DNA of 63,646 nucleotides, filler included, from Globobulimina sp. (Eukaryota): NCBI GenBank assembly GCA_003354225.1. It is 37 parts of 37 records of this genome, joined end to end, with 100 filler letters (N's around TTAATTAATTAA, not from the genome) between each part and the next. Parts side by side here need not be neighbours in the genome. Positions count along the whole stretch, not along the records: positions 8,621 to 10,244 come from PIVH01013970.1; 36 more parts are not named here. One strand, 5' to 3'. The notes beneath the pieces were generated by a model. That model was not told the DNA's origin. It did not search any database and saw only the letters and a program-made list of their open reading frames with translations. This document shows positions 1 to 10,549 of the stretch, in pieces. A program made the position numbers and the translations under genes. Positions within the stretch are counted from its first letter, which is position 1. Each line of letters opens with the position of its first letter.

Positions 1-285
1 GATCGATGGTTCATCATTACTTCGTTCCTCTATCTCCGGACACATGCGCTCCGGATCCAGAATGCCTGTTTTATCGATTACGTAACGGCTCTTGATACCT
101 GAAGCCTTTTCGATGAATTCGACCGAGGATTCTGCCAGGGCTTCCATTTCGCCAGCGGCGATCTCGTCAGCGTGGGCCTGATTGAAGTTCGCTACATAAG
201 TATTGAAGGACTCAACCAGTTCTTCGTTGGATATACTTTGTTCAGGCGTAAAGAGTCCGGTTCCGCTGATGACAATGTTGCTCAC
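1..285 (-). CDS. Bacterial beta-ketoacyl-ACP synthase III (PA3286-like KAS III), N-terminal 95 codons; not in the ORF track
   Basis: Manual translation from GTG at 285, with AAGGA RBS 7 nt upstream: [83 protein letters not shown]. Closely resembles gammaproteobacterial long-type KAS III. Runs off the contig end. Confidence 0.85.
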
Positions 286-305
286 TTCAATATCCTTGTT
301 GAATC

Positions 306-1624
306 ATGTGAATCGTATTGCGCCAAGGCAGAAATTGAATTTCGAGGTGGAAGAGACAAAAGAAAATATGGTGATGTGTAATAACACTGCGACGTTGGAA
401 CAGAAATTGAAAACGAAGACGATTCGTAAAAACGACGGTTGGAAGAACTTCAAAGTGGGAATGGAAGTGGGCGCGTTGGATAGTACGAACAGGTGGTATT
501 TGGCGGAGATTTTGCGGCATAAACCAAAGAGTGACACGTTGCAGGAATACGGCAATAATTTGAAACTGTGGCAACAAAATCAATTATGGAAATATAACGC
601 GATGGAAGGCATTTACGTGCATTACATGGGTTGGAGCGCCAAATGGGACGAATGGGTTTTTATCGACACCGATACGTTATGTAACTGCATCAGCGACACT
701 TGTACGAGTTTCCTGCACCGCATCATGTCCAAAGAGAAACATGAGGCCAAATTCGGCAAAACCAAGAAAAAAAAGAAGAAGAAAAAGAAATGGCAAAAAA
801 ATGCGGGCGGCGGATGGATGGCGAATGCCGCCAACACGGTGGTGAACACAGTGGCGGCCTGGATCCCCGGCGTAGGCGATGTGGGCAATAACAGCAATCA
901 GTACAGTACCTACAATAACAGCAATCAATACAGCAGCACGAGTAACTACAGCAACCAATATAACAGCAATAGCACCTATAACGCCGGCAACCAATATGGC
1001 ACCGGCAACCAATACAACAGCACCAGCCAATACAGCAGCGGCGGCACCTACAACAGCACCAACTATAACAACAGCACCACCTCCAACTACAGCACCAACT
1101 ACAACAACAGCACCGGCACCAACTTCAATAACAGCACCGGCACCAACTACAACAGCAACACTAGCAACGATAATACTGCACAGGGCTTAGATGAGGACGG
1201 TGAGGGTGGTGGAGGCGACGCAGACGGTGACGATTCGGGCGATGCTGGCGACGATAAAGAGGAAGACGAAGAGTTCGACATTGCGTGCGATACGTTCATA
1301 TTAGAAGGCCACCGCATGAGTGGATATTGTCAGATGTTTAAACAGAAAGAGCGGCCCGACAGCAATACCATCGATAAGACGTGCTGGAACACCAAAGAAG
1401 TGAAGGAGTTTCTGATTGAAATCAACAACCAATATATATTGGAATGGAAGGGCAGTTTTGTAAATAAATCGAGCGGCATCGACTTCTTAGCCTGGGCCAT
1501 TTGCAACGATGTGTATGAGGAATTTAATAAAGATAAGGAAGCGTTGGACGTCGAGGAACAGGGCGAGAAAGAAAACAGTAAAATCAAAATCAAAGTGGAC
1601 GAAGTGTTGGATGTGCGGCATCGA
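306..1624 (+). CDS. Eukaryotic protein fragment with Tudor-knot/MBT/Agenet-like domain, poly-Lys, N/S/T/Y-rich and acidic tracts
   Basis: FKVGMEVGALDSTNRWYLAEI...IYVHYMGWSAKWDEWV is a Royal-family signature. A second copy may start at the end (KVDEVLDVRH). The first ~34 aa of track ORF 203..1672 are antisense bacterial DNA, so the start is approximate. Confidence 0.65.
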
Positions 1625-1724
1625 NNNNNNNNNNNNNNNNNNNNNNNNNNNNNNNNNNNNNNNNNNNNTTAATTAATTAANNNNNNNNNNNNNNNNNNNN
1701 NNNNNNNNNNNNNNNNNNNNNNNN
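1625..1724. other. Artificial contig spacer (44 N + TTAATTAATTAA + 44 N), first of 36 identical spacers
   Basis: Identical 100-nt linker with stops in all six frames recurs every 1721-1724 nt. Intervening contigs decrease monotonically from 1624 to 1621 nt. Confidence 0.99.
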
Positions 1725-2057
1725 GTGGAGAATGAATATAATGATATCACAATGGTTGAATATATTGACGACGATGTAATTGTAAATGAATTGGGGATCA
1801 CTAATAAAGTGCATATACAATTATTATTGAGGCAGGTCGAGGAATTTAAAGATATGAGACAGAAATTTGATGCATTAATGGCAAGAAATACAATTTTAAA
1901 ACAATTTGAACAAAACTTGAATGGAAATGGGATATTAACAATCAATGATTTAAAGAAAGATATAACCACTAAAGCGGACGCAAAGCGAATATTGAAAATA
2001 AATAATCAAAAAGAAATACAGCAAATTTTAAGTATGATTAAACTTATTGAACGTTGA
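1725..2057 (+). CDS. SAM-domain protein, C-terminal fragment
   Basis: ENEYNDITMVEYIDDDVIVNELGITNKVHIQLLLRQV fits the SAM helix pattern; 5' partial. Confidence 0.55.
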   Translation: MENEYNDITMVEYIDDDVIVNELGITNKVHIQLLLRQVEEFKDMRQKFDALMARNTILKQFEQNLNGNGILTINDLKKDITTKADAKRILKINNQKEIQQILSMIKLIER

Positions 2058-2472
2058 TAACAATTAACAACTATTAAATTTATTTATGTTTTACTTCCAG
2101 AAATATCGATCAATATAAAGTTTGCATTTGGTTTGCGAATGTAGTCAATGTACAACCCAATGCAAATGTGTTTGTATTCACTTTGCAAACCCAATGTAAA
2201 TTTTCTTTGCATAAATCATATACAAAATAGCAAACCGTTTCTGGTGAGTGACATTGTGACAAAGGTAAAAAATTATATATGTTTGCCTTCGTTTCTCAGA
2301 AACCATAAAAATCTGACGCTGAAAACAGAATGCTCTTTTCAAAAATTTATAAATGTGTTAACTCAAAAATCCTACTTTTTACTACTAAAGTTTTTGTTTT
2401 GTTCAATTGGATCTCCAAAGTGCTGCAATATCCACAAACAAACACTACCAATTTATAATTATAATACCAAAT

Positions 2473-3348
2473 ATGAATCCAATTTATCCCACCACAAACA
2501 CATGGTCAGCCCGCTCACCTCGCTTTACATTCCCATCATTAACTCCCGCAGAAGCCTCCCTATCCATTGATTTCTCCTCCTTACGGCCTGACATCGAAGC
2601 GATTTATAAGAGCGATACGGAAGAGGCTGCGATTGACCCCGTTGTTTTAAGATTTCTTATTTCAGGTACGAATATAAAAATATTCTCTTTTATTTTCCGA
2701 TTTTGCGCTTCTATTAAAATATATATATATAATGTGAAATATATACAGAGCAAATTAAAACATTAGAAAAAGAAATGAAACGCGAAGAAAATGCGTTACA
2801 AAGATTGTTGAATGCGCCTACAACGCATTTATCCGCGCCAACGCCATATAGTCCATCGCGCACAAACGCATTTTTTAATGGCTACGAATCCGATTCAGAA
2901 AGAAAAGAAGACGGAGCACCATATACCCCACGTGCCGGCGCCCAAACACCATCCCCCGGCCCTATTTATTTCGAGGAGAATGAAGCAGCGCCATCATCGC
3001 CAAATGGTGTTGGTATAGGTATTGCTCCTGATGCGCCACCACATTTTTACAGACCGAGATACGGCGACCAATACATTGACGAATCCAGCTACGAATCCAC
3101 CTACGAATCCACCGAGGAGTCTACCACTAGCTCCTCATCATTAAACTATTCGCAAACAACAACAGAATCATGGAGCACGAGTGCCGACGTATATTCCTGC
3201 AGCGACCCAGAGTACGAATATCACGGTTTAACCACTCGACAAACTATGCACAAACTATTCCCACATGCAATCGAATTGCTAAAACCCACTGATGGTGCAC
3301 TTCCAAATCATTTCATTCTTCACTATCGTTTTCCTTTCATACCTCACA
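2473..3348 (+). CDS. Hypothetical Pro/Ser/Thr-rich protein, intron 2666..2748, 3' partial
   Basis: Removing GTACGA...ATACAG joins MNPIYPT...LRFLIS in frame to EQIKTLEKEMKREE. Confidence 0.6.
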
Positions 3349-3448
3349 NNNNNNNNNNNNNNNNNNNNNNNNNNNNNNNNNNNNNNNNNNNNTTAATTAA
3401 TTAANNNNNNNNNNNNNNNNNNNNNNNNNNNNNNNNNNNNNNNNNNNN

Positions 3449-5000
3449 ATGGACCAACACCAATTTTTTCAGTCCAGGCCACGAAGAGATTATTGGTGCA
3501 TGGCAGACCATGTTCCCTTTGCAAGAACAAGCGGCGCAAAGCCCACCACACGTACACACGCATACAAATAATACAAATACGCCTTACAAAAAAGCACGGC
3601 CCGCTCCTCTATCCATCCCACCTCCAGAGCCAATGAATAATATATCGACCACCACCACCACCACACAGCATACAAATTTGACCGCCGGTCTCCAAGATAT
3701 GCAATTTAGTAACGGCTCGCGTTGTGTTTCCGCGCCCATTCATGCCAACAACAATGAGGTGAATTATAGAAACGATATCAATCCGTATCTCACATTGCCA
3801 AATCTCAGCGAAATGCAATTAAATTCGCAGGTTTGTGTTAGGATTTATATTATATGTATTTGATATATATATCCTCAACGCCGACATATGCAATCCACAG
3901 AAGTACGACATTTGCCATGAAGCAAACCGGTTCTTTCCGCACCATTCTGTGATCGCGCAATCTATGAACATCTCTGCATTGAGCAACCAAGACGCGATCA
4001 TCCCGCACAATGCATCGATGCGGGCCTATCCCACTCGCATCGCTCTGCCAATCGTCCCCGCCGCATATCAAAACATTCAGCCTTCGTTTTGGCAAAAGCA
4101 TCAAGAAAATGACGTACATAAATTTGCAAATTCGAATCAAAGCTATCTTAATTATTCGTACAATCCGTACTTTGCACCGATACCTAATTCTGCGCCGTCT
4201 ACGCAAATGAGAGTTAATGTACATAATAATCCGCACTTTGTTGTACGTGTTATATACAAATAAAACATAACAAAAATTAAATCAAATCAAAGATGCCAAA
4301 CGTTTCCAGCACACTCGGTCACAATAACCGCAATAATGGGAATAGTGGCAATATTCGCGCACATTCTGCAGTGCCACTCGCGTGTAACAAGAATGCGAAT
4401 AAACCCAAAGTGAAACGAAAGAGAGGGCGGCCACGCAAATATAAGCGAGACAGCGACGACAAAATCATTGCCAATTTGTTGCGTACGCCGCCACCAAAAA
4501 AACGGAAGATATGTCGGCGAAGTGCAGATCGAAAGAATTTGCAGTTTCAGCAATATTTTGCCGGCGATGGGACCGGCCCAGAAATGCAAATCGAAGACTT
4601 ATCGCCGCAGAAGAATAGGAACGGAGTCAGTGGGCCCAATGCAAAGGGCTTCCAAAGGGGCGGTTTGCGGCATAACAAGAATGAGAATCAGGTGGTACGT
4701 ATCATTGGTGGCCGCGACAAATCTTACAAGAAACCGCCTGTCCGGCACCAGGCATATAATCGGATCCGAATATGGAAGGATAAGATCGGTCGACAGTTTT
4801 ATGACTGCATCTGCAATGCGAGGAAACCGGTGCAAGACTTAAATAAAATAAAATCGCACGTCTTGGGACACGACAAAATCGTATGGGTTTGCGATATTTG
4901 CGGCAGAGAGTTTTTTAATAACCATCTCCAATTAAATGCGCATATGAAGACGCATAAAAAAAGGGAAATTAAAGCTGGCGAACAACCCATTATTAAATAA
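3449..5000 (+). CDS. AT-hook plus C2H2 zinc-finger transcription factor, introns 3831..3900 and 4243..4292, 5' partial
   Basis: Two phase-0 GT-AG introns fuse three track ORFs. KRKRGRPRK AT-hook; CDICGREFFNNHLQLNAHMKTH finger; a degenerate finger CICN...HVLGH. Confidence 0.8.
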
Positions 5001-8520: not shown

Positions 8521-8620
8521 NNNNNNNNNNNNNNNNNNNNNNNNNNNNNNNNNNNNNNNNNNNNTTAATTAATTAANNNNNNNNNNNNNNNNNNNNNNNN
8601 NNNNNNNNNNNNNNNNNNNN

Positions 8621-8774
8621 AAAGCAAACGGATTCTGAATAGCGGGGTTTTTGTGTGAGGGCTTAACTTTCTTCCTTCCTGTTTGAGACAGCTGTTTTGC
8701 AGTCCTTCCATCAAAAAGAGAAAGAATTCCTGGGCGTCGTCCTGGCGGCCAGGCCGTAGTTTCTTTGAGAGCAC
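8621..8774 (-). CDS. Ubiquitin-specific protease (USP36/42-like) fragment, probably chimeric
   Basis: LRPGRQDDAQEFFLFLMEGLQ contains the USP QxDAxEF box. GC is higher than the adjacent DNA. Confidence 0.6.
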
Positions 8775-8955
8775 TGTTTTGTTTTTCGAGTTGGATTGTG
8801 TGGGATTGAGCAGTTTTATTATAATTACATTAATTATTAGATTGCATCATTCCCAATGCATAAATGCTGTATATATGGTAACAACAAATCAATTATTTAT
8901 ATTTTGTAGAGGAAGGATAGGAAAGGAAAACAAATAAATATTTTAAGTTAATTTA

Positions 8956-9034
8956 TCAGAAAGCCATGCAAGTGGATCGGGGTTAGTCGTCATATAAATT
9001 ATTATCAGTCATACGCTCCCAAAATAATCATCAG
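8956..9034 (-). ncRNA. Box C/D snoRNA E, snR74/SNORD27-like (18S Am28) with a second 18S guide
   Basis: C CUGAUGA 9034-9028, D' CUGA 9008-9005, C' AUGACGA 8993-8987, D CUGA 8959-8956. The D' guide targets UCAUACGCU, with +5 on the A equivalent to yeast A28. The D guide is a 15-nt complement of AAGCCAUGCAAGUGG. Confidence 0.9.
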
Positions 9035-9215
9035 ATTAAGAAAAAGAAAACATTCATATAGAAACATACCATATTGTTCCTATGACGTACGTCGTATCTG
9101 CAGTTCCATTGCCATCACATAAACCTAAATATCAATTCATTATTCATCCATTTTTAGACATTGACAAAAAACAATCCCGTATTAAAAACATGTTTGTTAG
9201 GCAAAAATGAAAAAA

Positions 9216-9276
9216 TCAGTTAAAATTGTCGACATTATCTTTCAGTTCAAGTAGAGGTAAAAAAGGATATCATCAC
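9216..9276 (-). ncRNA. Box C/D snoRNA D, target unassigned
   Basis: C GUGAUGA 9276-9270, D' CUGA 9245-9242, D CUGA 9219-9216, inside intron 9310..9125 and 91 nt from the acceptor. Confidence 0.75.
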
Positions 9277-9438
9277 AAATATTTATAAGAAATAAAGATC
9301 AAATACATACCTATCCACTTATTATTTTGTATGGTTCATCATTATAATGCCTGTAATGTAAAAAACAAAAATTCAATAAATGTTTGTATAGTTTGCATTG
9401 TGTATAAAAATGTCATAATATAAAAAAAATGGGTGTGA

Positions 9439-9507
9439 TCAGATCAGGTCTCCATAGGGAGTTTTTCACGGATTCATCTCAAAACTGTGAACTATGCGTT
9501 TCATCCG
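9439..9507 (-). ncRNA. Box C/D snoRNA C, two LSU rRNA guides
   Basis: Variant C box GGAUGA 9506-9501 and D CUGA 9442-9439. Antisense elements are complementary to the conserved LSU motifs GUGAACUAUGC (11 nt) and AUCAGGUCUCCA (12 nt). Confidence 0.8.
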
Positions 9508-9678
9508 GCAAAGTTTACCAATGTACAAAACATACCATTCACCAAATGATTGTTATCCGCATTAATGATCTATGTCGAGTCGCTATATATATTAAAAAAA
9601 AAACATTATTCAGCAAAAATTATTCAGGAAAATTCAAGAAATTAAATTGTTTGGACAAATAACAAAAATTGGATTGGA

Positions 9679-9751
9679 TCATAATGACATAATGGCGTAT
9701 CTTCATTGTAGGTCAGATACCACAGCACGTGTTTAATTTAAATGTAATCAT
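9679..9751 (-). ncRNA. Box C/D snoRNA B with compensatory variant boxes
   Basis: C AUGAUUA 9751-9745, D' CUGA 9716-9713, C' AUGAAGA 9706-9700, D AUGA 9682-9679. Perfect terminal stem UUGGA/UCCAA. The D guide is complementary to UGACAUAAUGGC (possible LSU target). Confidence 0.7.
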
Positions 9752-9956
9752 TTCCAAAGTGTTTCTATCAATCAATCTATAAAAGTTACATACGTCTAAA
9801 TGGGCAAAATAACACCAATCACGCTGAGAATAACATTAATTTGTACCAATACATTTTCATTCTTTATTATTATTTGATTCCTGTGTAAATATGAAAAAAA
9901 AAGTCAGTTGAGCAAATTATTCAAAATTTTGTGTTTGATTTGATAATTTATATTAA

Positions 9957-10034
9957 TCAGCAAATTTAGATTTGTTTCAATCTCAACAGATTTACTTTCA
10001 GCAGAACGAAGGTTGTGAACAATACTATCATCAG
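9957..10034 (-). ncRNA. Box C/D snoRNA A, snR54/SNORD59-like (18S Am974 equivalent)
   Basis: C CUGAUGA 10034-10028, D' CUGA 10001-9998, D CUGA 9960-9957, terminal stem AUUGA/UUAAU. The D' guide is complementary to AGAACGAAGGUU, with +5 on the second A of GAAC. Confidence 0.88.
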
Positions 10035-10549
10035 TCAATGGAATGGAATGGAATGGTGTATAAAATGAGTTTTTCTTAACATACCATGAGGTGGGAATGA
10101 ATTGATGTTAATTGCTTCCAATATTGCTCAATTTGGGTTGTGATTGCTCAATTTACGTTTTGCTCATTATGTGTTTAGAATGGTGAAAGTGGGTGTTGTT
10201 GTTTTTTGAAGTGAAGGAGTTATTGTTAAAAACTTTGTTGTAGANNNNNNNNNNNNNNNNNNNNNNNNNNNNNNNNNNNNNNNNNNNNTTAATTAATTAA
10301 NNNNNNNNNNNNNNNNNNNNNNNNNNNNNNNNNNNNNNNNNNNNTTCTTTTATTTACAACATTGTTCACTTGTAATTTAGTACCAAGTGGATTTGTTGCA
10401 ATTGCAATCGCCGATGGTTTGTAGAATTCAATCTCTTTCGTCTCTGCTGGAAAATCAGATAGTAACATGGTCACAGTGGTACTAGAACGCTCAAGAAAAG
10501 TTTTGGGGATCGGCATCTGAGACGATATAAACGTTTACAAAGATGCATT

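Follow-up and report, generated by a model that had tools for sequence, protein, structure and literature searches.

The 79-nt element on the minus strand at 9034..8956 is very probably a real snoRNA of a foraminifer-like protist, located within a cluster of such genes. We place at about 0.8 the probability that it is an expressed, intron-derived box C/D snoRNP which would methylate both the homologue of 18S rRNA A28, through its D' guide, and the C at position 49, through its D guide, both activities being predicted from sequence. The main rival accepts the snoRNA and grants it a single active guide; a silent gene copy and chance similarity are both unlikely. The DNA analysed, referred to as the window, is 63,646 nt long and is made up of 37 complete contigs, each 1621-1624 nt in length and arranged by size, joined by 100-nt linkers composed of 44 N, a 12-nt all-frame stop spacer and 44 N (1625-1724, 3349-3448, 8521-8620, 10245-10344 and so on). 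As the window is a chain of separate contigs, gene adjacency across the linkers is meaningless, and the MFS-like and Radical_SAM_N ORFs present in the adjoining pieces were rejected as genomic neighbours of the element.

Structure of the candidate snoRNA

The element, termed sno5, possesses the features by which box C/D snoRNAs are recognized in sequence: C and D boxes near its ends, internal D' and C' boxes, guides of at least 10 nt and a predicted target at the +5 nucleotide. Reading 5' to 3' along the minus strand, the C box UGAUGA (9028..9033), preceded by a C and not by a purine, is followed by a 19-nt D' guide spacer (9009..9027), which ends in GAGCGUAUGA and of which the 3' 11-12 nt pair with 18S nt 25/26-36, and by the D' box CUGA (9005..9008). 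A 12-nt A/U loop separates the D' box from the C' box UGACGA (8987..8992), which differs from UGAUGA by a single U-to-C change. The 27-nt D guide spacer (8960..8986) ends in CCACUUGCAUGGCUUU, pairs with 18S nt 51-65 and is closed by the D box CUGA (8956..8959). Boxes, spacing and two rRNA-complementary guides thus agree with the double-guide box C/D anatomy proposed in a sequence-only reading of the locus, the coordinates of which, 8956-9034, are correct and to which the minus strand, unstated there, can be added. The same reading described the boxes as canonical, a description that holds for the presence of all four in C-D'-C'-D order and does not hold for the mismatch in C' or the C preceding the C box. 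The U-to-C change in C' falls on the position that forms the U.U pair of the K-turn or K-loop; a weaker C'/D' snoRNP, and with it reduced D' (A28) function, could result.

Folding does not distinguish sno5 from shuffled sequence, with a minimum free energy (MFE) of -10 kcal/mol, a z score of +0.70 and 150 of 200 shuffles folding equally well. A possible terminal stem, UUAAU/AUUAA, can be drawn by eye as 5 bp, all A-U, with an internal loop; it is missing from the MFE fold. Absence of a folding signal is usual among C/D snoRNAs and lends the candidate no support. At the gathering score, Rfam produced no match anywhere in the window, to rRNA or to any other family. A permissive search of 8850-9150, at E values up to 10, returned five matches, RF00086 (SNORD27) not being among them; the best were sub-threshold and generic to C/D RNAs, namely plasmodium_snoR21 (23.6 bits vs 90), snR75 (15 vs 40) and SNORD53_SNORD92 (12.9 vs 46). 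No second copy of sno5 is present in the window.

Foraminifer-type 18S rRNA as a reference

Metagenome contigs were scanned with a 15-mer, the sense copy of the D-guide target, which identified 119 loci. Ten of these are eukaryotic SSU 5' ends and one, L007, is a different SSU; the remainder are chance matches in unrelated DNA. The L007 SSU start (...CCGGUUGAUCCUGCCGGAG...) is GC-rich and archaeal-looking and carries the same 15-mer, which is consequently not unique to foraminifer-type 18S. In all four loci tested (L008, L020, L098 and L112), Rfam confirmed a full SSU gene, 2972-3712 nt in length, together with 5.8S and LSU. SSU genes of this length and the primers sA10, s6rA and s14F1 presumably mark Foraminifera, and it is on this hallmark and on exact primer copies that the loci are called foraminifer-type. 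The three primers match exactly in each of the four loci, and sBf in one of them. sA10, s6rA and s14F1 are SSU primers from the available part of Table 1 of PMC4757448, a paper on planktonic foraminifers.

Predicted methylation of the A28 homologue

The D' guide forms 11 Watson-Crick pairs (nt 25-35) and one G.U pair (nt 36) with the 18S of L020 and L112. Against L098 the duplex comprises 10 Watson-Crick pairs and one G.U, the loss of one pair resulting from a C at nt 25 of L098. The complement of the guide at 18S nt 26-36 is CAUACGCUCC(U/C). Its +5 nucleotide faces A29 of L098, which corresponds to Rfam SSU model position 28 in the cmscan alignment, the foraminifer-type 18S of L098 having one extra base before the A28 homologue relative to the model. 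The +5 nucleotide had previously been assigned to the A of UCAUA, and it is the second A of this motif that is selected. Among the environmental 18S 5' ends, seven of the nine that reach this first site read UCAUACGCUCC; with nt 25 included, one change is found in L098 (at nt 25) and in L119 (CAUAUGCU), and two in L079 (CGCUUC). The first site played no part in the selection of these loci, the D-guide 15-mer having served as search key. The D' guide also matches nt 609-618 of the L098 LSU perfectly over 10 nt, a match that was dismissed as chance, as it is absent from the other two of the three LSU pieces, both of which are incomplete.

Methylation of the target adenosine ranks with the most conserved rRNA methylations. 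The accessible portion of Table 1 of PMC8817022 gives Am28 for Dictyostelium (CD18), yeast (snR74) and Arabidopsis (AtU27), and Am27 for human (U27), and U27, snR74 and AtU27 are grouped under RF00086 in the part of the table seen in PMC3511168; the two tables thus bear out the assignment of Am28/Am27 to snR74/SNORD27 made in the earlier reading. Drosophila Am28 (snoRNA:CD5a-c) is marked as conserved in six species in the portion of Table 1 available from PMC11014333, and the Plasmodium snoRNA PFS4 is listed, as a prediction, for 18S Am28 in that of Table 1 of PMC2656528. Judged by complementarity and by the position of +5, the D' guide of sno5 very probably directs 2'-O-methylation of the A28 homologue.

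A second predicted target at position 49

The D guide, nt 2-16 upstream of the D box, forms 15 uninterrupted Watson-Crick pairs with 18S nt 51-65, AAGCCAUGCAAGUGG. The 15-bp pairing is found in all three full rDNA loci, an agreement that was guaranteed in the environmental loci by the use of this 15-mer as search key. The +5 nucleotide faces C54 of L098, equivalent to position 49 of the Rfam SSU model; this is the first C of GCC, as originally proposed, and the predicted targets of the two guides are 25 nt apart in 18S. The second site had been said not to be familiar from yeast or human, and we likewise know of no methylation at position 49 of yeast or human 18S. With respect to this position, undescribed is used here to mean absent from the available parts of the Arabidopsis, Dictyostelium and Drosophila tables, in addition to the yeast and human 18S as we know them. 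The Arabidopsis 18S methylations in the accessible part of PMC8053127 are A28 and C38, followed by U123, with none at 49. Likewise, the Dictyostelium entries in the corresponding part of PMC8817022 run from Am28 and Cm38 to Am432, and those for Drosophila in the part of Table 1 obtained from PMC11014333 pass from Am28 to Gm393, neither series having an entry at 49. Position-49 methylation is absent from the main texts on Leishmania, zebrafish, Tetrahymena and Ostreococcus, whose site lists are largely in supplements, and the papers listed by a literature search for Cm at approximately 18S position 49 were unrelated or, as judged by title, general reviews of RNA or tRNA modification.

The geometry of the D duplex is standard, the pairing starting at nt 2 with the +5 nucleotide well inside, and the guide adjoins the canonical C/D pair at the terminus, the half of a C/D snoRNA that is usually the more active. 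Both observations argue against the main rival, in which sno5 is a real snoRNA with one active guide. In one version of this rival the D' guide modifies A28 and the D duplex is an accessory pairing or folding clamp, nt 25-65 of 18S being held open while U3 and the SSU processome act and C49 remaining unmethylated; in the reverse version it is the D guide that works and the weakened C'/D' pair that does not. A single active guide would be consistent with the non-consensus C' box, with the location of the two targets, 25 nt apart and both in strands marked as paired in long-range helices of the Rfam consensus structure, and with the lack of position 49 in the portions of the Arabidopsis, Dictyostelium and Drosophila tables cited above. 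However, lineage-specific methylation is common, accounting for 21 of 49 sites in Dictyostelium in the available part of PMC8817022, and we consider the one-guide alternative doubtful in either version. The reading in which both guides are active is preferred, and the D guide probably directs a second, undescribed methylation, predicted to fall on the C at position 49.

Target sites in the organism's own 18S rRNA

Five sequencing runs, none of them recorded as RNA, contain parts of the sno5 contig, and the contigs of four of these (X1-X4) were aligned to L098:8700-9200. In each of the four runs, contigs at depths from approximately 10 to 4000 align to L098:9086-9155, corresponding to 18S nt 1-67, with 0-2 differences from the L098 18S 5' end over approximately 68 nt and no gaps, these values being counts of differences without the letters involved. 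One contig, record 10 of X2, is identical to L098 over nt 41-67, so the second site and two flanking bases are exact. Absence of the D-guide complement from 18S had been named as an outcome that would contradict the snoRNA assignment; the complement is present in full in this contig. The same outcome at the first site is probably also excluded, the D' complement being probably present, with one difference within nt 30-40 possible. Contigs covering nt 26-67 (X1 and X3) and nt 30-67 (X4) show one difference each from L098. If their sequence is shared with record 10 of X2, this difference falls in nt 30-40 and could affect the D' duplex at nt 30-36. Among the environmental loci the variable position within nt 30-40 is mostly nt 38, which lies outside this duplex.

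Two families of contigs in runs X1-X4 begin at the same point and then diverge into different upstream (ETS) sequence. From the contig ends and the behaviour of de Bruijn assembly we infer that two 18S 5'-end variants are present, which seem to differ at nt 25; they could reflect rDNA variation within one genome or the presence of two related organisms in the samples. Beyond 18S nt 67 the variable region is 48 nt long in X1-X3, compared with 101 nt in L098.

The host contig and neighbouring candidates

The 1624-nt contig that contains sno5 (8621..10244) carries on its minus strand five GTATGT...YAG units, at least four of which have a C/D candidate. The GTATGT motifs, at 10084, 9793, 9535, 9310 and 9069, represent 5 of the 25 occurrences on both strands of the window; a contig strand carries 0.34 on average, and none but this one has more than two. 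Each is followed by a pyrimidine-rich tract and a YAG 185-212 nt downstream, the tract of the sno5 unit itself being polypyrimidine-poor. In four units the C/D candidates start 24-46 nt after GTATGT and end 74-91 nt before YAG. sno5 lies in a putative intron, delimited by motifs, at 8867..9069 on the minus strand, with GTATGT at 9069 and a ...ACAG end near 8867; the donor-like signal lies 35 nt before its start and the acceptor-like signal approximately 89 nt beyond its end. The GTATGT...YAG units are thus regarded as putative introns, their splicing being deduced from these motifs. This clustered, intron-like setting is the strongest added evidence for sno5.

The other candidates on the minus strand also possess rRNA complementarity. 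sno1 (10038..9955) has a D' guide with 13 perfect pairs to SSU AGAACGAAGGUUG in all three environmental SSUs and a D guide for which the only match is 10 nt long and AT-rich. The D guide of sno3 (~9511..9439) forms 12 perfect pairs with LSU AUCAGGUCUCCA in L098; the C box of this candidate is degenerate (GGAUGAA), its 3' end has two overlapping CUGA motifs, and if the D box is chosen differently the guide pairs with LSU CUCCAAAGGGAGU at 12 of 13 positions in all three LSUs. A stretch upstream in sno3 pairs with SSU (C/U)UCAACACUGUGAAC in the three SSUs, the target beginning CUCAAC in L098 and UUCAAC in L020 and L112. The smallest candidate, sno4 (61 nt, 9276..9216), consists of GUGAUGA, a guide and CUGA, with another CUGA 22 nt downstream; its D' guide forms 11 Watson-Crick pairs and one G.U pair with SSU UUCAAGUGGAGG in the three SSUs, and its Rfam matches are weak (Me28S-Am982, 19.5 bits; SNORD12, 17.5 bits). 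The fifth unit (9793..9582, minus strand, ~212 nt) is similar in size to the others, and a search for boxes and conserved rRNA complements within it revealed no convincing snoRNA, the boxes being degenerate (AUGAUUA, AUGAAGA) and a conserved rRNA complement absent; an orphan or H/ACA RNA may be encoded there.

The stretches between units are short, and at least one of these presumptive exons has stops in all three frames. An exon-like ORF at the 3' end of the contig (8644..8846, minus strand) gives a weak match to UCH (ubiquitin C-terminal hydrolase) around a QDAQEF motif, scoring 21 bits (E 2.9e-4) where the cut-off is 23.9; none of the three frames of 10250-8640 contained a Cys box upstream of this ORF. 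The host transcript may therefore be non-coding, or the units may lie among 5'-UTR exons of a ubiquitin hydrolase gene.

A regular array of this kind, with other intact candidates between splice-like signals, is not what would be expected of an inactive copy of a gene that functions elsewhere in the genome, whether a snoRNA pseudogene or an unexpressed paralogue on a small contig. The imperfect C' box and the highly fragmented state of the assembly, as seen in the 37 contigs of 1621-1624 nt, would be compatible with such a silent copy, but none of the four boxes is missing, the two guides remain intact at 15 and 11 perfect pairs, and the window contains no second copy. We consider this explanation very improbable and retain the expressed, intron-derived snoRNA as the preferred interpretation.

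Frequency of chance matches

Fortuitous complementarity was evaluated by block-shuffling the window and scoring anchored matches, defined as perfect complements of at least 10 nt ending 0-2 nt before CTGA. When the target was the first 70 nt of foraminifer-type 18S, at least one anchored match occurred in 103 of 3000 shuffles and at least two in 4 of 3000. In the real window there are two, located 49 nt apart on one strand within a C/D frame, one of which spans 15 nt. When the target was the whole rDNA, 16 anchored matches were observed compared with 9.7 expected, and a match of at least 15 nt was obtained in 17 of 500 shuffles; paired matches 30-70 nt apart numbered two in the real window, compared with a mean of 0.056 and a maximum of one per shuffle. 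The whole-rDNA control is the weaker of the two, because the rRNA expansions share the AT-richness of the window. A chance origin, whether as an AT-rich intron with box-like motifs and rRNA-like words or as a scrambled rDNA fragment, is scarcely credible: UGAUGA (97 occurrences) and CUGA (347) are frequent on the two strands of the window, the folding is no better than that of shuffles and the matches to whole rDNA are near background, but the two anchored 18S matches, a combination so rare in the shuffles window-wide, stand in C-D'-C'-D order with one on a universally methylated base, and the rRNA-like words in sno5 are antisense and in the reverse order of 18S, indicating that it is not a collinear piece of rDNA.

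Relationship to known snoRNAs

sno5 resembles U27/SNORD27, snR74, AtU27, CD18, CD5a-c and PFS4, as these are described in the available parts of the tables, in placing the +5 nucleotide of a guide on the 18S A28/A27 homologue. The likeness to RF00086 is by target alone, the covariance model giving no hit, and sno5 is accordingly filed as a functional counterpart of U27/snR74. Its second guide, for position 49, has no counterpart in the accessible portions of the tables, where PFS4 is listed with 18S Am28 alone. A further difference from the U27/snR74 group is that the guide of sno5 fits the 18S of its own lineage, including the CC of a 4-nt insertion.

The sequence-only reading had interpreted both guides as following divergent foraminifer 18S and thus as evidence of guide-target co-evolution. 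For the D guide this is borne out over its 15 nt, where it follows the lineage sequence GCAAGUGG and not the consensus GCAUGUcU. At the first site, CAUACGCU is not foraminifer-specific, because the Rfam eukaryotic consensus itself reads aUAcgCU, and the guide G would pair with either C or U; what is particular to the lineage in the D' duplex is the CC of the 4-nt insertion after CGCU, which is met by GG in the guide. Thus, by sequence comparison, the guides of sno5 fit the rRNA of their own lineage better than generic rRNA. As the comparison involves one snoRNA from one genome and no orthologue from another lineage, co-evolution is offered as an interpretation of this fit.

The arrangement of one snoRNA per intron is of the animal type, exemplified by GAS5/UHG-like hosts. 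The sno5 contig is similar in having five consecutive units of approximately 185-212 nt, at least four with one candidate each, and differs in that its introns are assigned by motif and an UCH-like ORF lies at the contig end. Of the neighbouring candidates, sno1 resembles yeast snR54 (RF00473), to which it gives a weak match over the full model and with which it shares the guide end ...UUCGUUCU before CUGA; at 22.9 bits (E 1.6) it falls below the family rule, the gathering score being 50.

Proposed mechanism and significance

sno5 would be released from a spliced intron of a multi-intron host transcript, one snoRNA per intron, and would assemble with fibrillarin, Nop56, Nop58 and Snu13 on the C/D and C'/D' motifs. 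The resulting particle is predicted to pair with nascent 18S near its 5' end, at two sites separated by 25 nt, where the D' guide would direct 2'-O-methylation of the A28 homologue, the ancient function of U27/snR74, and the D guide that of the first C of GCC, at position 49. Both target strands being marked as paired in long-range helices of the Rfam consensus structure, sno5 would have to reach them in nascent 18S, before the 5' domain folds. Its two duplexes together take in 26-27 bases among the first 65 nt of 18S, and it could also act as a clamp.

At the level of the lineage, the proposal is that the 18S of Foraminifera, or of this lineage among them, carries a Cm49, in the GCC strand of a long-range 5'-domain helix, that is absent from the maps cited above and made by the Am28 snoRNA, possibly with a clamp function, and that the locus is the first foraminifer snoRNA host gene; we regard the odds for this larger proposal as even. 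A full-text literature search for Foraminifera and Reticulomyxa, judged by title or abstract, found no description of foraminifer snoRNAs. One rhizarian-related paper that was examined concerns nucleomorph RNAs. Both the type of element and the way it works are textbook matters; what would be gained is coverage of the eukaryotic tree and not a new principle.

If the proposal is correct, the snoRNP would hold 26-27 nt among the first 65 of 18S and could serve as a lineage-specific folding clamp beside the U3 binding region, and the locus would be the first foraminifer snoRNA host gene to be described, with an animal-like layout of one snoRNA per intron. sno5 combines an Am28 guide retained in the lineage with a predicted new methylation site, in a compact host locus with at least four snoRNA candidates. 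The contig would thereby afford an initial view of the rRNA-modification machinery in a lineage with an unusually expanded 18S, 2972-3712 nt in the four environmental SSUs.
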